Assembly: GCA_018666805.1 (NCBI GenBank)
Contig: JABIXB010000205.1
Span: forward strand, 12,889-76,888
Direction of reading: 5' to 3'
Length of the DNA stretch: 64,000 nt
Origin: Rhodospirillaceae bacterium
GTDB lineage: Bacteria; Pseudomonadota; Alphaproteobacteria; UBA828
Shown: piece after piece, positions 4,150 to 14,382 of the stretch
How the letters are laid out: each line of letters starts with the position of its first letter
Position numbering within the stretch: the stretch's first letter is position 1
Translations under genes and position numbers: made by a program
Notes under the pieces: model-generated
Seen by the model: only the letters and a program-made list of their open reading frames with translations
Told to the model about the DNA's origin: nothing
The model's database searches: none

Positions 4150-5544
4150 TCAATAACGCTGAATGGCGCGCCGGGACACGAGAGTAAAACGCAGCGCCAA
4201 GCTGGTACAGGATACGAGCGCGCCGGCGAGAAAGCCCCACATCAGGCCGGGCGTGCCCAATTCGGCATGAAAAGCGAGAACGTAAGCAACCGGAACCGCC
4301 ACGCCCCACCACGAAACAAACTGCATAACCGGCGGCAGCCAGACATCCGCCATGCCGCGCAGAGCACCCATCAGCACCGCCTGCCCGCCATCGAAAATCA
4401 GCACGATACCGGCAATAAAAATCAACGGTACGGCAACAAAGATCACAGCCGGATCATCTGTATAGAGCTCCGCCAGCGACGTGCCGAGTGCGAAAAACAG
4501 CACGGTAAAAAAGGCCATAATAATTGTAATCAATGTTAGGGCGGACCAACCGGCGTAACGGATATCGGCCGAATTATGCCGCCCGACTGCATTGCCGACA
4601 CGTATTGTCCCGGCGCCGGCTACCCCGATGGCACACATGAAAACCAGCGCCACCAGATTAAAGGCGATTTGATAGCCGGCGAGCGGAACGGTTCCCAACA
4701 GCCCAGCCAACATGGTCAAAGCGCTGAAAGCGGCGGCCTCAAGACCGCGCGCGGCACCCATGGGAATGCCGATGCGGCGTAGTTTTCGTGCAATCAGCCA
4801 AAAATTCCGAATTGCGCCACCGATTCCCAGTGCCGCCCGATCGGGTAATTTCAACACATAGAGGACGAGCGCAGCAAACATGACCCAGCGCGTAATCGAG
4901 GTTGCCAGCGCGGCGCCTTCGGCGCCCATCTCCGGCGCACCAAGGGCACCATAAATAAAAATGGCGTTGAGCCCGGCATTAAAGAAAATAGCCAAGAGCG
5001 TGAGGACCATACTGGGCAAGGGGCGGCTCAGCCCGTCGAGAAAAAACGACGTGGCGACCCACATGCCGAGGGCCGGCAGACCCCACGAGATCATACGCAG
5101 CACCGCGGCGCCGCCGCTGGCAAGCTCCGCCGATTGCCCGACGGCAACCAAAATGATTTCACCCAGGAAGCAAATTCCCGCCATCGCCAAACCGAGCACC
5201 ACACCGTGCACCAAGCCGACGCGCCAATAGCTGCCGCATTCCTGCTCAGCGCCGGCGCCGTGCGCCTGGGCAACAAGCACCATGGTGCCTTGCAATAGGC
5301 CGACCGTCACCAACACCATGACCACCTGGAGCGCATTGCCAGCGGCGTAATAGGCTAGATTTAGCGTGCCGTAATGACCGATCATGGCGGTATCGACGGC
5401 AACCATGATCAGCAAACCGGCGCGCATGACAATCATCGGCCCGGCCAGGCGGACCGTACGCTTGAGATGGGTGGCGAAATTCATCGTCGGACCGGCGGCT
5501 GTGCCGGTGTCCGGGGAATCGGCGCTAAATTTTCGGGTGGACAT
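4150..5544 (-). CDS. MATE family multidrug and toxin efflux transporter
   Basis: About 12 TM helices with the MATE duplicated-half pattern. The track ORF starts at 5679; the more likely start is MSTRK at 5544 or MNFATH at 5484. Confidence 0.8.
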   Translation of the reverse strand: MSTRKFSADSPDTGTAAGPTMNFATHLKRTVRLAGPMIVMRAGLLIMVAVDTAMIGHYGTLNLAYYAAGNALQVVMVLVTVGLLQGTMVLVAQAHGAGAEQECGSYWRVGLVHGVVLGLAMAGICFLGEIILVAVGQSAELASGGAAVLRMISWGLPALGMWVATSFFLDGLSRPLPSMVLTLLAIFFNAGLNAIFIYGALGAPEMGAEGAALATSITRWVMFAALVLYVLKLPDRAALGIGGAIRNFWLIARKLRRIGIPMGAARGLEAAAFSALTMLAGLLGTVPLAGYQIAFNLVALVFMCAIGVAGAGTIRVGNAVGRHNSADIRYAGWSALTLITIIMAFFTVLFFALGTSLAELYTDDPAVIFVAVPLIFIAGIVLIFDGGQAVLMGALRGMADVWLPPVMQFVSWWGVAVPVAYVLAFHAELGTPGLMWGFLAGALVSCTSLALRFTLVSRRAIQRY

Positions 5545-9438: not shown

Positions 9439-10197
9439 ATGCAGTATTTTGATGACCTGCCCTACACCGTGGCTGTGGTCGGCGCCGGCAGCGGCATTGG
9501 CAAGACGACGGCGGAACTGATCGGGTCGATGGGCGTCTCTGTCGGTTGTCTCGACAAAAATGCGGAGGCGGCCGAAGATACCGCGCAGGCGATCGAGGCG
9601 GCGGGCGGCAAGGCCTGCTCCTACGCCATGGAAGTAACCGACCCGGCAAGCGCCAAAAGCGCGCTCGATCATGTCGAAGATATACTCGGCAACATCTCAG
9701 GCCTGGTGAATTGCGCCGGCATCACCGGCAAAACAGCGGTGCTCGGCGCGGATGTCGATCTCGATGATTTCGACCAGGTGCATGATATCAACGTCAAGGG
9801 TGCGCTGATCGTTTCCCAGGCAGTGCTGCCCAGCATGTTGGCACGTGGTTATGGCCGCGTGCTGCACGTCGCCTCGATCTCCGGCAAGGAAGGGAATTCC
9901 GGCATGCTGGCTTATTCGACCTCCAAGGCCGGGCTGATCGGCATGGTCAAGGTACTGGGCAAGGATTACGCCGAATCGGGCGTTACCATCAACGCCATCG
10001 CACCGGCCGTGGTGCGGACACCGATGGTCGATGTTCTGCCGAAAGAAACCGTCACCTATATGACCGATAAAATCCCGATGAAACGCTGCTGCGAGCTTAG
10101 CGAAGTGGCGCAGTTGATCGCCTGGACCATCTCACCGGCGTGCAGCTTCAACACCGGCTATGTGTTTGACATGACCGGCGGGCGCGCCACCTATTAG
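9439..10197 (+). CDS. SDR family NAD(P)-dependent oxidoreductase
   Basis: VVGAGSGIGK cofactor motif, NCAG, S..YSTSKAG (YxxxK active site), PG.V.T. Confidence 0.85.
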   Translation: MQYFDDLPYTVAVVGAGSGIGKTTAELIGSMGVSVGCLDKNAEAAEDTAQAIEAAGGKACSYAMEVTDPASAKSALDHVEDILGNISGLVNCAGITGKTAVLGADVDLDDFDQVHDINVKGALIVSQAVLPSMLARGYGRVLHVASISGKEGNSGMLAYSTSKAGLIGMVKVLGKDYAESGVTINAIAPAVVRTPMVDVLPKETVTYMTDKIPMKRCCELSEVAQLIAWTISPACSFNTGYVFDMTGGRATY

Positions 10198-10198
10198 T

Positions 10199-11842
10199 TT
10201 AATCGACGACGATGATTTCGCCGAGAAAGCTCTCTTGAATGCGAATCGTCGCGACACCGCTTTGGATCGACTGCGTCGGAACGACGGCGGTGGCGGCGGA
10301 ATAGCCATCGGCGGCGTAGCGCCGGGTGATGGCATGGGAGATGCTGTAGAGATCGCTTACCGAGACCTCACTGCCAATATAGTGCCGGTAAATCGGCAGT
10401 AATTCACGCGCCGAATAGATTGAGGAACCGTCGATGATGACGCCGGCCAACTCAAAGCGCATCTCGGCCGCATCCTCTTCAGGCAGAATATCGACAGCCA
10501 GATCGCCAGATTCTTCCTGACTATCGAGCGCCGCATCAATTCTCGCCCATTCCGATTGTTCTTCCTCCAATTCTTCTTCCAATGCCGGTTTGGTTGCGCT
10601 CGTTTCATCCGCGCCCTCCGCGCGTTCCGCAACCGCTTGCGGCTCGGGCTCCAACGCGGCAACCACCTGTTCCACCTCCGGCTCGACAACCTGCTCGACC
10701 ATAGCGACTTCGGCCTCAGGCGGTTGCTCGGGCTCCGGAGCAACGACAGTAATCTCAGCCTTTTCCGGCTCAGGTTCCGGTGTCTCGACCACGATCTCGA
10801 CCTCTTCCGGCTCGGGCTCCGGCGTTTCGACAACGACCTCGACCTCCTCCGGCTCAGGCTCCGGCGTTTCGACAACGACCTCGATCTCTTCCGGCTCAGA
10901 CTCCGGCGCCACTGCGGCGATCTCGATCTCTTCCGTTTCGGCGGCAACGATCTCCGGCGCCGCTTCGTCGGCAACAATATCCACGGTCTGTTCGGCGTAA
11001 TCGCCCCGAGTGACCTCTTCGGGGTCCATCTCAGGCTCGCTGCTCTCGACCGGCTCGACCACAGCGACGATCGTTTCTTCTGGTGCCTCCTCGGGCACCG
11101 TCTCTGCCACTGCCTCGACCACGGCAGCGTCTTCCGCCGCCGGTGTTTCGCCCGCCCCATCCTTGGTATCCAGGCGTGAAGCCAATTTCGGCATGACGGC
11201 GCCGAAATCGCGCCCCTGGGCGCTGAACAGCTCGGCCACATTGTTGAAGAGGACAGCGCTGGTCAACGGATGGACGCGCTCGATCTCGGCCAGGATACCG
11301 AGGGCGCGGCGATACAGCGGCTCGGCCTCGGCAAATCTCGCTTCGAGATAATAAAGTTGCGCCAAATCGTTCAAACTAACGGCCACCGCCATGTGATTGG
11401 GGCCGAATTCCATCTCCTTGATCTTAATCGTCCGGAGATAGAGCGTTTCCGCCTCATCATAGCGACCCTGCCAGCGATACAATTTAGCCAATTTTCCGAC
11501 CAATACGGCGGTGGTGCGGTGGCCCATGCCCAAGGATCGCTCGGCCGACTGCACGGCCTCGACCAACAGCGGCTCAGCCTCCCCGAGATGGCCCATCTCA
11601 ATATGCAGCTCGGCAACATTAGCGTAGAGAACGGCCGAAGTCGGGTGACCCTCGCCAAACTCGCTTTCATGCAATTCGATCAGTTTAAGCGCATGCGGCA
11701 GTGCCTCTTCAAAGCGGTCCTGCGCATAGTGCGTGGCATAGAGGTTGTAGGTATCGAGAAGCGCGTCCGATTGCGCCCAGCCCGTGGCCGGGGCCAGCGC
11801 GAACGCCGCAACCGCCGCTATCGCCCACCTTCTGGCCTTCAT
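10199..11842 (-). CDS. Periplasmic protein with TPR repeats, an acidic tandem-repeat region and a C-terminal POTRA_2-like domain, with no beta-barrel
   Basis: Signal peptide MKARRWAIAAVAAFALAPATGWA. About 200 aa of TPR (YANVAELHIEMG, LAKLYRWQGRYDEAE, LAQLYYLEARFAEAE). About 180 aa of PEPEPEEVEVVVET repeats. The C-terminus GVIIDGSSIYSARELLPIYRHYIGSEVSVSDLYSISHAITRRYAADGYSAATAVVPTQSIQSGVATIRIQESFLGEI matches the ShlB/FhaC-type POTRA pattern. The stop abuts the convergent SDR gene. Confidence 0.65.
   Translation of the reverse strand: MKARRWAIAAVAAFALAPATGWAQSDALLDTYNLYATHYAQDRFEEALPHALKLIELHESEFGEGHPTSAVLYANVAELHIEMGHLGEAEPLLVEAVQSAERSLGMGHRTTAVLVGKLAKLYRWQGRYDEAETLYLRTIKIKEMEFGPNHMAVAVSLNDLAQLYYLEARFAEAEPLYRRALGILAEIERVHPLTSAVLFNNVAELFSAQGRDFGAVMPKLASRLDTKDGAGETPAAEDAAVVEAVAETVPEEAPEETIVAVVEPVESSEPEMDPEEVTRGDYAEQTVDIVADEAAPEIVAAETEEIEIAAVAPESEPEEIEVVVETPEPEPEEVEVVVETPEPEPEEVEIVVETPEPEPEKAEITVVAPEPEQPPEAEVAMVEQVVEPEVEQVVAALEPEPQAVAERAEGADETSATKPALEEELEEEQSEWARIDAALDSQEESGDLAVDILPEEDAAEMRFELAGVIIDGSSIYSARELLPIYRHYIGSEVSVSDLYSISHAITRRYAADGYSAATAVVPTQSIQSGVATIRIQESFLGEIIVVD
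10760..10935. repeat. Tandem repeat inside the TPR gene, period about 45 bp, about 3.5 copies
   Basis: Near-identical units ctcttccggctcgggctccggcgtttcgacaacgacctcgac encode the repeats EEVEVVVETPEPEP. Confidence 0.7.
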
Positions 11843-11850
11843 GAACTGAA

Positions 11851-12111
11851 TACCAAGGGGTGGTGATAGTGACACATAGGGATCGCCCCTGCGGCCTGTC
11901 GGGTAGGAGGGAGGCCGCAGGCGATGCGGCGCATCGGCAAGGCCTTCCGACGCCCTCCAACAGGCCGCAGGGGCGACCGGTTCGGCGGCTTACCAAGGCT
12001 TTCGGACGGCGTCGCGCGTGCCTTGCGATGTGCCGCATCGCCACGCCCCACGCTCCTAGCCGAAAGCCTTGGTAAGCCGTCCCTATGCGCCACTATCACC
12101 ACCCCTTGGTA
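11851..12111. mobile_element. MITE-like non-autonomous element with 32-bp terminal inverted repeats and nested internal palindromes
   Basis: Left end TACCAAGGGGTGGTGATAGTGACACATAGGGA (11851-11882) and right end TCCCTATGCGCCACTATCACCACCCCTTGGTA (12080-12111) are reverse complements at 30 of 32 positions. Internal perfect 16-bp inverted pairs are CGCCCCTGCGGCCTGT/ACAGGCCGCAGGGGCG and TTACCAAGGCTTTCGG/CCGAAAGCCTTGGTAA. If the ends are read as CCAAGG..CCTTGG, the element is flanked by TA dinucleotides. No transposase ORF is present. Confidence 0.5.
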
Positions 12112-12158
12112 TTTAACTCCCGAATCATGCCCCATAAAAAACCCCAGAGCCGCCCGCG

Positions 12159-13454
12159 TCAACAATTAGGCGCATGCGTGTGGCACGCCAGGACATCGCC
12201 GACCAAATAAAGCGAACCGCAGACGAGGATGCGGCCCGGGCCGTCCTGTCGTGAAATCCACGCCAGCGCCGCCTTTACATCTTTAGCCTCATGATTTGGC
12301 AAACCGAGGCCCGCCGCCGCCGCCGAGATATCTTCTGGTGCCAAACTGGCAGTTTCACCCGGCACGGCGACCCCGGTCACGCTGGCCGCGAGGGGCGCAA
12401 GCGGGCGGAGGAAATCTTCCGGCGCCTTGCTGTTGATCATGCCGATGATCAAATGGAGCGGCTTATCCGTCCAATCCCGGGCCGCCGCCAGCGCCTCTCC
12501 AGCCGCCGCATTGTGGCCCCCATCGAGCCACACTTCCCAGCCTGCCGACATATCGGACAAGGATATTTGCTGCAACCGGCCGGGCCAACGGGCGCCGGCG
12601 AGACCCTCAGTAATCGCCGCGTGCGGCAACGCACCCGCCGCCAGCACCTCGACACAGGCAATGGCGATCCCGGCATTGCCGATCTGATGCGCGCCGGCGA
12701 GAGCGGGCAGGGGAAAGTGCGATTTTCCCGATGATGATTCGAAATTAAAGCCGTCACCGCCGGGGTGAACATCCCATTCAACGCCGTAGCGCAGGAGAGG
12801 TGTTCCGAGAGTGGCAGCGCGGTCCTCGATTGCGGCGAGCGCAGCTGGCATCTGGGCGCCGATCACCGCCGGTACCCCAGCCTTCAGAATACCCGCCTTC
12901 TCAGCCGCGATGCCGACCAGCGTATCGCCAAGATATTGCGTATGATCGATCGACACCGGCGTAATGGCCGAAAGCGCCGGGCGCGCCACAACATTGGTCG
13001 CATCGAGCCGCCCGCCGAGGCCAACCTCCAGCAAAAGAATATCGGCGGCGCTGCGTTCGAACGCGAGCAAGGCGGCAGCGGTGGTGATTTCAAAAAATGT
13101 GATCGGCGCACCTTCGTTAGCAGCTTCGCATTCCGCCAACAGAGCGGTGAGTTGCGCCTCGTCGATATCCCTGCCAGCAAGCCGGATGCGCTCATTAAAA
13201 TGCACCAGATGGGGCGAAACATAGCTATCCACGCGCTGGCCTCTGGCGCTGAGGATGGCGTCTAAATAGGCCAGGGTGCTGCCTTTGCCGTTAGTACCGG
13301 CAATATGAATGACAGGCGGCAGGCGGGTTTCGGGATTGCCCAAATTTTTCAGCAACCGTTCCATACGGCCGAGCGAAAGATCAATCAGCTTGGGATGCAA
13401 TTGCTGCAGCCGAGCGAGAATGCGGCCGCTCGCTTCCGCCGGTTTGCCCGTCAT
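12159..13454 (-). CDS. folC: Bifunctional folylpolyglutamate synthase / dihydrofolate synthase
   Basis: IHIAGTNGKGST P-loop and the Mur-ligase-family architecture. It sits in the conserved accD-folC position. The start is placed at MTGKPAE. Confidence 0.9.
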   Translation of the reverse strand: MTGKPAEASGRILARLQQLHPKLIDLSLGRMERLLKNLGNPETRLPPVIHIAGTNGKGSTLAYLDAILSARGQRVDSYVSPHLVHFNERIRLAGRDIDEAQLTALLAECEAANEGAPITFFEITTAAALLAFERSAADILLLEVGLGGRLDATNVVARPALSAITPVSIDHTQYLGDTLVGIAAEKAGILKAGVPAVIGAQMPAALAAIEDRAATLGTPLLRYGVEWDVHPGGDGFNFESSSGKSHFPLPALAGAHQIGNAGIAIACVEVLAAGALPHAAITEGLAGARWPGRLQQISLSDMSAGWEVWLDGGHNAAAGEALAAARDWTDKPLHLIIGMINSKAPEDFLRPLAPLAASVTGVAVPGETASLAPEDISAAAAGLGLPNHEAKDVKAALAWISRQDGPGRILVCGSLYLVGDVLACHTHAPNC

Positions 13455-13485: not shown

Positions 13486-14382
13486 TCAGGGTGCCGGCGT
13501 CTCGGCGCGCGCAAGCTCGACGACTTGAGCGGGCGCGGCGGTATTGCGCAACAGGGATATTGTCTTCGCCAAGGTGTCGCGCAAATCATGGCGCCGGACC
13601 ACCATGTCGATCATGCCGTGCTCGAGGAGATGCTCGGCGCGCTGAAAGCCTTCCGGCAGCTTTTCACGGATCGTATCCTCGATTACCCGCGCGCCGGCAA
13701 AGCCGATCACCGCGCCGGGTTCGGCAATGGCAATATCGCCCAACATGGCGAAGGATGCCGTCACGCCGCCGGTGGTCGGGTGGGTGAGCACAACGATATA
13801 GGGCAGATGCGCTTCTTTCAGTTCATCCACCGCGATGGTGGTGCGCGCCATTTGCATCAGCGACAATGTGCCTTCCTGCATTCGCGCCCCGCCCGACGCC
13901 GGGACGACGATAAACGAAGAATCCTGCAACACCGCGAGCCGCGCGCCATTCAGTAGCGCTTCGCCGACCGCCACCCCCATCGAGCCGCCGAGAAAGGAAA
14001 AATCGAACGCCGCGACGACGACCGGATTGCCACCGATCGTGCCATGGGCAACGATGACGGCATCCTGATGGGCGTTACTGCGCGCATCTTTCAGGCGGTC
14101 GGCATAGCGCTTGCGGTCACGAAAACGTAAGGGATCGTTTGTCACCTCGGGCAGCTCGATGGTTTGAAACTCGCCGTCATCGAACATGTAGGAGAGGCGC
14201 TTGTTCGCATCGAGGCGCAAATGGTGATCGCAGTGCGGGCAGACACGCTGATTGTTTTCAAGCTCGCGGTGAAAAATCATCTGCTCGCAATTGGGGCACT
14301 TTTCCCACAAATCATGCGGGATATCGTCCTTGCGAAAGAGGCCCCGCACCTTCGGGCGGGCGAAGCGATCGAGCCAACTCAT
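13486..14382 (-). CDS. accD: Acetyl-CoA carboxylase carboxyltransferase beta subunit
   Basis: N-terminal zinc ribbon CPNCEQ...CPHCDHH and the carboxyltransferase domain; 298 aa. Confidence 0.9.

Follow-up and report, generated by a model that had tools for sequence, protein, structure and literature searches.

Introduction

The Rickettsia palindromic elements (RPEs) are translatable palindromes that tolerate an in-frame position, and the Correia and ERIC elements are known to alter expression, either by carrying promoters or by being processed by RNase III or RNase E (PMC10969869). Here we describe a short palindromic element that resembles both groups in part. It occupies positions 11851-12111 of a 64,000-nucleotide stretch of DNA from a Rhodospirillaceae bacterium (contig JABIXB010000205.1, assembly GCA_018666805.1; the whole stretch is hereafter called the window), where it lies between folC and a gene for a tetratricopeptide repeat (TPR) protein, and it is very probably an insertion of a family of transposable elements of the miniature inverted-repeat type (MITEs). 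The combined explanation that we favor, and that we hold to be probable though by no means secure, is that a copy of a non-autonomous DNA transposon split the GGGAG Shine-Dalgarno sequence of the TPR gene from its ATG, and that the split is tolerated through translation across the element.

Like the RPEs, members of this family are palindromic non-coding mobile repeats of alphaproteobacteria, the likeness drawn here being one of behavior; in both, length and a stop-free frame permit in-frame residence in protein genes, and the peptide is not conserved. RPEs, however, measure about 150 bp and have been described mainly through in-frame insertions, not through clear terminal inverted repeats with a TWA duplication, whereas the present elements are 261 bp long, Y-shaped, provided with a start site in each repeat, and mostly intergenic in the sample that we fetched. 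With the Correia (NEMIS) elements of Neisseria and the ERIC elements of enterobacteria, the family shares a small size, terminal inverted repeats, insertion beside genes, and, as predicted for our copies, co-transcription with the neighboring genes and long hairpins in the mRNA. Correia elements duplicate TA and carry promoters and an IHF site, in contrast to the present family, which shows a TTA/TAA duplication, no promoter that we could find, and conservation both of its two internal hairpins and of an open frame.

Structure of the element and its insertion site

The copy in the window is complete, being matched by a hidden Markov model (HMM) of the family over positions 1-261 (E = 5e-80), and its parts add up as 32 + 94 + 9 + 94 + 32 = 261 nt.

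11851..12111, plus in the orientation of alignment A2 (host mRNA sense is minus): complete copy of the nested-palindrome MITE, 261 bp or 87 codons
11851..11882: left terminal inverted repeat TACCAAGGGGTGGTGATAGTGACACATAGGGA, with a Shine-Dalgarno-like AAGGGG, 8 nt, then GTG (family consensus AAGGAG-N8-ATG)
11883..11976: hairpin A, 94 nt, with a 20-bp basal stem paired at 95%; stem sequence differs among copies, with compensatory changes
11977..11985: mini-hairpin CCGGTTCGG, a 9-nt linker at the center of the element
11986..12079: hairpin B, 94 nt, with a 20-bp stem paired at 100%; holds an internal TACCAAGG/CCTTGGTA
12080..12111: right terminal inverted repeat; its minus strand gives AAGGGG-N8-GTG, the GTG being 12093-12091

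An initial annotation, made from the letters of the window alone, had described a 261-bp unit with 32-nt terminal inverted repeats matching at 30 of 32 positions, and this holds: the arms, 11851-11882 and 12080-12111, pair at 30/32 positions, with the two exceptions being G.U pairs in the minus (mRNA) sense. The arms share an identical first 21 nt (TACCAAGGGGTGGTGATAGTG), and on either side the pairing reaches two bases (AA) beyond them into the flanks. In the window, the 21-mer is confined to these two places, and 100 shuffled controls gave 0 matches. The nested palindromes reported by the same annotation proved even more ordered than claimed, since they form two 94-nt hairpins with 20-bp stems; moreover, when reverse-complemented, the interior of hairpin A is homologous to that of hairpin B, which makes the whole unit a palindrome of palindromes. 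In size, the element is a MITE, for which the limit is about 500 bp, with 261 bp, no transposase gene, and only spurious open reading frames (ORFs).

The surrounding locus reads as follows.

10199..11842, minus: TPR gene, 547 aa, predicted to be secreted, with a signal-peptide-like N terminus, TPR repeats and a C-terminal POTRA_2 domain; ATG at 11842
12112..12158, minus: conserved spacer between folC and the TPR gene, with a GC-rich stretch, a T-run, an ATG, and the GGGAG; left whole on the folC side of the element
12117..12121, minus: GGGAG, the TPR gene's ancestral Shine-Dalgarno sequence, which today precedes the ATG by 274 nt and formerly did so by 7-8 nt
12159..13454, minus: folC (folylpolyglutamate/dihydrofolate synthase, Mur-ligase domains); stop TGA at 12161-12159
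13486-14382, minus: accD, a neighbor at the same locus

The placement of the element between folC and the TPR gene, 8 nt from the start of the latter, was confirmed, and 47 nt separate it from the folC stop. The same annotation supposed that the insertion had replaced any normal ribosome-binding site, which is not the case: the ancestral GGGAG and the conserved spacer are still present and have merely been parted from the ATG. Between the GGGAG (12121-12117) and the TPR start lie TTAAA, the 261-nt element, and TTCAGTTC, and the 30 nt preceding the ATG contain no Shine-Dalgarno-like motif. As to the suggestion of an outward promoter, the scan found 0, and likewise no consensus promoter was seen when the conserved folC-TPR spacer was scanned; a conserved TTGACG, considered as a -35 box, was dropped when it turned out to be the last folC codons plus the TGA stop.

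Six related species (L007-L011 and L072; folC 64-88% identical) keep folC followed by the TPR gene without the element. Their spacers measure about 50 nt and end in GGGAG or a variant of it, 5-8 nt, and ATG (TTG in L010); with the element subtracted, the spacer in the window is 5 nt longer than those of the relatives. The nearest folC in species-representative genomes is 88% identical (L007), and since the protein collection holds no relative with a folC identity between 88% and 100%, the exact pre-insertion sequence and the original duplication are not recoverable. Within the species, all contigs fetched that span the site carry the element. They come from more than 15 independent assemblies (metagenome-assembled genomes [MAGs] from NCBI and assemblies from ENA and JGI), which excludes an assembly artifact, and no empty site was found among them. 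Apart from one low-coverage contig (L101), none departs from the window at more than a single site, a common single-nucleotide polymorphism (SNP). These comparisons of contigs and relatives indicate that the element was inserted in the lineage of this species between the GGGAG and the ATG and was then fixed.

The deviating contig L101 (ERZ27237609 k141_32514, about 2790-2860) has one arm of hairpin A altered by a cluster of about 10 substitutions and by a 1-nt insertion. The changes are uncompensated in the other arm and represent either an assembly error or a real stem-breaking variant.

The TPR gene itself seems to be in use. In its TPR domain, polymorphism within the species amounts to 8 synonymous and 0 non-synonymous changes (13:14 for the whole gene, the non-synonymous changes clustering in an acidic linker), which argues that the gene is still under purifying selection and hence presumably still expressed.

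A dispersed family of related copies

The family was reached through a spurious ORF of 81 aa that some gene finders call inside the element. A search with its peptide returned about 100 protein clusters, 54-89% identical over the element-encoded part, including 20 different locus tags of one MAG (GCA_022562195.1), and a 108-aa ORF on the opposite strand gave 201 protein clusters at 50% identity. From the contigs behind such matches we identified ten independent insertions at unrelated loci (L102 with two copies, L103, L104, L105, L106, L108, L110, L111, and L112), which share 75-91% DNA identity with the copy in the window. Seven complete copies measure exactly 261 bp, and two others reach 263 and 275 bp through small insertions; a contig end truncates one copy, and another has lost its first 20 nt through an inserted insertion sequence (IS). 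Contigs L102 and L111 hold two copies each, and a fragment at a contig end hints at a further insertion. All copies end in TACC...GGTA, and they lie in both orientations relative to host transcription.

A member of a second subfamily, at 8519-8815 of contig L104, is 297 bp long and has different terminal repeats (GTGGCCTGTATCATC...) combined with homologous internal modules; it folds into the same Y (-207 kcal/mol, z -9.8). Across the two subfamilies, then, the interior modules are better conserved than the ends. This member sits between folA and the next gene, is flanked by TTA/TTG, and its repeats (GTGGCCTGTATCATCTTAATTG...) are unrelated. In 268 kb of host DNA neither solo hairpins nor solo ends were present, which indicates that the whole unit is what moves.

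At first glance, exact searches pointed to a single-copy element. Scans with the ends, in which 185,579 species genomes were searched with a 21-mer and both viral contigs and JGI metagenomes with a 19-mer, returned this locus and three chance single matches. Such exact-match scans are blind to diverged ends, and they missed the family because positions 9-13 of the ends are not the same in every subfamily; the copies found through the ORF searches overturned the single-copy view. The three other matches (L087 1152-1170, L088 2026-2044, and L091 773-793) are single exact repeat matches of 19-21 nt on unrelated metagenome contigs, have no inverted partner, and lie at least once within apparent coding sequence; we took them as chance. 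Three family members compared by blastn with plasmid and phage collections, and a conserved-core pattern run against viral contigs, gave no match.

The copies and the empty sites agree with the MITE-like mobile element that had been proposed, being absent from six related species at this site and having full-length relatives at unrelated loci with duplications. The opposite outcome, a single-copy sequence conserved at the same place in all relatives, was not found, as the family is multi-copy and the folC-TPR site is empty in those six species. The family thus combines the features by which prokaryotic MITEs are recognized: small size, terminal inverted repeats, a target duplication, many unrelated loci per genome, and empty sites. 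In the literature on sequence motifs and MITEs in these taxa we found no description of it; its members, small non-autonomous mobile elements of uncultured marine alphaproteobacteria resembling Rhodospirillaceae, apparently have not been reported before.

Target duplication and putative transposase

The initial annotation had read the TA at each end as a duplicated target and assigned the element to the IS630/Tc1-mariner type. The alignment of independent copies contradicts both points. Outside the invariant TACC...GGTA, a 3-bp direct repeat was perfect in 5/9 copies and had one mismatch in the other 4/9. The flanks are TTA/TTA in L103, L105, and one of the two copies on L102 (L102a), TAA/TAA in L108 and L111, TTA/TTG in L104, TTA/TTT in L110, and CTA/TTA in L112; the second-subfamily copy on L104 (L104b) has TTA/TTG. 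Because these flanking repeats are direct and alternate between TTA and TAA, they represent duplications, and the inner TA belongs to the element. The IS630/Tc1-mariner assignment is therefore ruled out, the TA being an invariant terminus and the duplication 3 bp of TTA/TAA outside it.

Duplications of TTA/TAA are typical of DDE transposases of the IS5 family (IS1031, IS427, and ISL2 groups) or of the PIF/Harbinger type. The flanks recorded here fit the 3-bp TNA/TWA form of these enzymes, and judged from this pattern they point to a transposase of the IS5-family/Harbinger type as the putative mobilizing enzyme. Tourist-like MITEs, which belong with the same enzymes, have the same 3-bp TTA/TAA duplication around terminal inverted repeats. 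The likeness is limited to the type of duplication: IS5-family ends start with GA or GG, whereas those of our family start with TACC. An autonomous partner would be expected to share the ends TACCAAGG...CCTTGGTA or GTGGCCTG....

Associations with insertion sequences were recorded as well. The copy on L106 is interrupted at TTA by an IS5-type IS whose ends are unrelated to those of the element; this IS (L106 9100-10016, ERZ28763718 ctg115770, with DUF4096 and DDE_Tnp_1 ORFs) replaced the first 20 nt of the copy. The surroundings of L106 and L107 are 20 kb packed with transposase genes of the IS3, IS1595, IS110, IS256-type, and IS5-type groups. Finally, in P0356 the 3' end of an ORF for an IS110-family transposase (DEDD_Tnp_IS110 and Transposase_20) reads into a copy truncated within its terminal repeat. 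IS110/IS1111 elements target REP sequences, and by analogy P0356 suggests that an IS110-type element may target the present repeat.

Conservation of the fold

Both strands fold into a Y composed of an outer stem and two 94-nt hairpins. RNA folding of the 316-nt spacer gave -197.8 and -212.7 kcal/mol for the two strands (z = -13.4 and -12.3), so that the check on both strands suggested at the outset returned the same Y twice, and the element folded as DNA reached -113.6 kcal/mol (z = -15.9). Covariation was computed on the ten-sequence alignment A2. The consensus Y comprises 93 pairs, 98.2% of the cells in paired columns are paired, and 25 pairs have changed on both sides; shuffles gave a mean of 12.1 such pairs and reached 25 in 0/500 cases, and sliding the partners by 1-3 columns reduced the count to 3-7. 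The Y structure is kept by compensatory change across copies. The covariation is concentrated in the outer stem, that is, in the terminal repeats themselves, and in hairpin A, where helices 3-5 hold 11 pairs altered on both sides; the stem of hairpin B (helix 7) is near-invariant across the family, 16 of its 20 pairs never varying. Such heavy compensatory covariation within a MITE, terminal repeats included, is unusual and raises the question of whether mobility or host selection keeps it. The fold may be maintained for mobility, for the mRNA, or through arm-to-arm repair.

Were the fold a substrate for mobility, the enzyme could be of another kind, namely an HUH/Y1-type enzyme acting on a single-stranded or cruciform form, as with REP/REPIN or the T-shaped termini of parvoviruses. 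Compensatory covariation even in the terminal repeats and hairpin A would fit such structure-dependent mobility, as would interior modules more conserved than the ends, the z of -15.9 for the DNA fold, and the occurrence in both orientations with no consistent strand bias in stability (the sense strand is the more stable in 6/9 copies). Direct 3-bp duplications varying between TTA and TAA, however, fit DDE-type integration. Direct duplications of 3 bp are the hallmark of staggered integration by DDE enzymes, and HUH transposons (IS200/IS605, IS91, Helitrons) are not known to make any. Solo hairpins or ends are absent from the 268 kb, and no candidate enzyme was seen; all in all, we regard an HUH/Y1 mechanism as highly improbable. 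Mobilization as a REP/REPIN by a RAYT was rejected. Such elements are short hairpins scattered as single units or doublets and leave no target duplication; here no solo hairpins occur in these 268 kb, and it is the 261-bp unit that moves, with duplications.

As regards the strand, the three stem imperfections of the window copy and the common SNP are all G.U pairs in the mRNA sense; counts of G.U versus A.C pairs, like the comparison of folding energies between the sense and antisense strands, are suggestive for this copy only. Beyond the repeats, its flanks pair at 11/13 positions (p about 7e-4), and in the predicted fold they extend the stem, drawing both GGAG and the UG of the AUG into it. 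The proposal that the element might be a structured small RNA found no support in Rfam 15, where even at a relaxed threshold nothing but noise appeared and the best scores (23-27 bits) stayed far below the gathering scores of 62-87.

The built-in reading frame and translation of the TPR gene

Each terminal repeat, with the family consensus TACCAAGGAGCGGTGATAATGACC, contains a consensus Shine-Dalgarno sequence, 8 nt, and an ATG that is in phase with base 1 of the element. Frame 1 is stop-free in 11/18 copy-orientations (8 stops), frames 2 and 3 in 0/36 (100 stops; Fisher p = 3e-7). The initial annotation had seen no ORF of coding character here. In so far as ORFs of 71-111 aa do cross the element, this was inaccurate; it was right in that no coding-type substitution pattern exists, and on this ground a protein-coding reading of the 81-codon frame was rejected. 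Variable sites are spread over the codon positions as 35/27/33, with no excess at the third, and indels of 1-2 nt and of 14 nt are tolerated (L103, L111). The even variation and the indels imply that what is conserved is the openness of the frame, not the peptide.

In all copies, one arm reads AAGGAGCGGTGAT and the other ATCACCGCTCCTT (for example, L103 442-465 and 681-704). The arms resemble an extended Shine-Dalgarno sequence and the 3' end of 16S rRNA (GATCACCTCCTTA) except for a 2-nt insertion, which is either chance or a link to the start site.

That the element is not selfish DNA at all, being instead a functional structured non-coding RNA or the gene of an 81-aa small protein, is a proposal that the strong covariation, the consensus ribosome-binding site with ATG and open 81-codon frame, and the calls of ORFs by gene finders in hundreds of contigs might seem to recommend. 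We nevertheless find it barely credible: no Rfam family comes near threshold, the sequence is missing from close relatives at the site and scattered elsewhere with target duplications and in both orientations relative to host genes, codon positions vary evenly (35/27/33) with 1-2-nt and 14-nt indels tolerated, and the peptide is of low complexity, rich in Arg, Pro, Gly, and Ala.

In the window, the open frame joins the spacer to the TPR gene.

11839..12135, minus: pass-through ORF (element frame 1) that begins at ATG 12135, or at GTG 12093 within the repeat, crosses the 87 element codons, and ends at TGA 11841-11839

The TGA of this ORF overlaps the TPR start (ATGA). The arrangement is not confined to the window: six copies precede a gene start by 22 nt or less, and in each of them the ORF of the mRNA sense passes through the element without a stop and ends near that start. 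In the window, in L103, and in L108 (before mutL), it stops with a TGA overlapping the ATG; in the remaining three it stops 4-9 nt before the ATG, in L104 and L112 through a duplicated TAA/TAG and in L110 just past the gene's own GGGAGA. The behavior recalls the RPEs in that the length is a multiple of three with a stop-free frame and that one clear in-frame case exists. This is P0329, a phage-type tail tape-measure protein of 1116 aa (PHROG 167, E = 9.5e-10), in which residues 833-919 are a complete element of exactly 87 codons (YQ...LV) in frame, the ORF running on for 190 residues past it.

These findings led us to hypothesize that translation is coupled across the element. Ribosomes would start at ATG 12135 or at the GTG 12093 of the repeat, initiation either preceding transcription of the 3' arm or following the opening of the stem by an upstream ribosome; they would translate through the Y structure and melt it, reach the UGA of AUGA, terminate there, and begin anew at the TPR start. 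Such coupling would stand in for the displaced Shine-Dalgarno sequence. The element itself would have been mobilized in trans by a DDE transposase making TWA duplications (IS5-family/Harbinger-like). Two known situations are comparable. In phage T4 genes 38 and 25, the ribosome-binding site is split by a hairpin insert of about 20 nt, a folded insert between Shine-Dalgarno and AUG as at this locus; here, by contrast, a mobile element of 261 nt is inserted, and it comes with a start site of its own. In coupled operons of the ATGA type, as here, the UGA of the upstream ORF overlaps the next AUG.

While the combined account of a transposon insertion tolerated by translation is the one that we judge probable, coupling taken alone, as read from the positions of starts and stops, falls somewhat short of an even chance, and several observations weigh against the account. 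On the translational side, the L108 subfamily lacks the Shine-Dalgarno motif and the ATG, its frame being still open; the difference in openness between sense and antisense comes from few, related copies (Fisher p = 0.025); the minus-orientation frame is open in 8/9 copies regardless of the direction of transcription; and the start site of the repeat is buried in the outer stem of the folded RNA. On the side of mobility, no autonomous partner with matching ends was found in the fetched loci, in exact-end scans of genomes, metagenomes, and viruses, or in the plasmid and phage collections, and neither the exact 21-mer nor the family HMM revealed a second copy within the 64-kb window. Furthermore, the flanks of the window copy, GAA...TTT, show no recognizable duplication, the original one having decayed or been reshaped; that its repeats differ at only 2/32 positions and its flanks pair at 11/13 suggests that these flanks were reshaped after insertion.

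The retained Shine-Dalgarno sequence offers another way in which the TPR gene might be translated, with the Y fold bringing the GGGAG beside the ATG, as in phage T4 genes 38 and 25, and the open frame being incidental. In its favor, the GGGAG is kept 5 nt before the outer stem and the ATG stands 8 nt after it; the fold is extremely stable, the three stem imperfections and the common SNP of the window copy are G.U in the mRNA sense, and the gene is still under purifying selection. Yet the two sites would effectively stand at least 13 nt and one helix width apart, the predicted fold pairs the GGGAG with the start region rather than presenting it, and copies 7-9 nt upstream of starts (L104, and L108 before mutL) have no Shine-Dalgarno sequence on the far side, which means that bridging is not a general solution of the family. 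We consider it unlikely, though worth keeping in view.

The same pairing of flanks could mean that the element acts mainly as a negative or processing element and was fixed by drift, the stem sequestering the Shine-Dalgarno sequence and the AUG, or RNase III cutting the duplexes, with altered expression of the TPR gene and an effect on the host that is neutral or mildly deleterious. The pairing at 11/13 positions beyond the repeats (p about 7e-4) would agree with this, as would the minimum-energy fold, in which GGAG is hidden together with the UG of the AUG. RNase III typically acts on duplexes of this kind, 20-34 bp in length, and in Correia transcripts the terminal repeats are the sites of cleavage (PMC10969869). 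Against it stands the 8:0 ratio of synonymous to non-synonymous changes in the TPR domain, which argues that the gene is still used; nor does it explain the family-wide stop-free frame and the placement of stops at downstream starts. As a full account it appears improbable. Neither bridging nor processing excludes translational coupling, however, as they are compatible with it and not mutually exclusive.

More broadly, the family may consist of "translationally transparent" MITEs whose evolution has fitted them to persist at TTA/TAA sites, which are few in GC-rich genomes, a proposal that we put forward tentatively and with more doubt than coupling itself. The TTA/TAA sites in such genomes would be stop codons, spacers of ribosome-binding sites, and Leu codons. 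The adaptations would be a length of exactly 87 codons, one frame stop-free on both strands, and a ribosome-binding site with a start in each repeat; the duplicated TAA or the flank would supply a stop at or beside the start of the next gene and re-couple this downstream gene, and the Y fold would serve mobility or compact the insert in the mRNA.

Consequences for annotation and wider significance

The element is annotated as a "hypothetical protein" of 50-170 aa in hundreds of contigs from marine alphaproteobacterial MAGs (for example, the gene calls on L092, L097, and L099). Its ORF also adds N-terminal extensions to real genes, a TrpB-like pyridoxal phosphate (PLP)-dependent enzyme and a creatinase/prolidase-family protein, so that the trpB and prolidase-like genes are given false N termini by the repeat. 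Many family matches come from contigs just 340-900 bp long, and a copy forms the start of contigs L089 and L111; these short contigs and contig ends within copies indicate that the repeat fragments assemblies.

The locus offers a natural case in which a very stable 261-nt structure stands between the Shine-Dalgarno sequence and the start codon of a gene under purifying selection. If coupling is true, it would show a selfish element minimizing its cost in compact operons, and it would extend the idea behind the RPEs, that a mobile element is tolerated when ribosomes can translate it, to free-living marine alphaproteobacteria and to intercistronic sites. The combination of a Y fold, covarying repeats, a start in each repeat, an 87-codon frame, and the placement of stops could be new, provided that a larger census and experiments agree.

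Further observations on the TPR gene and the spacer

The TPR protein begins with a signal peptide and TPR repeats, continues with an acidic repeat linker, and closes with one ShlB-type POTRA_2 domain; there is no beta-barrel, and homologues of 571-651 aa share its domain set. Matches to the whole protein were dominated by generic TPR proteins. Between 10632 and 10935 of the window, the gene contains a 42-nt tandem repeat of at least 4 units that encodes an acidic PEPEPEEVEVVVET-like repeat of 14 aa. The acidic linker with the clustered non-synonymous polymorphisms (gene nt 1207-1340, about 10500-10640 of the window) lies just downstream of this tandem repeat, and the length of the protein varies between strains (547 versus 540 aa). 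The gene ends 1 nt from a convergent gene for a short-chain dehydrogenase (9439-10197).

In L007, a mini-ORF of 7 codons (5325-5351; ATG AAA CGG GAG TCG GGT TTA TGA) spans the Shine-Dalgarno sequence, and its TGA overlaps the ATG of the TPR gene. An ATG after the T-run of the folC-TPR spacer is present also in L008, in L009, and in the window, and the spacer may have held a leader ORF already before the insertion.

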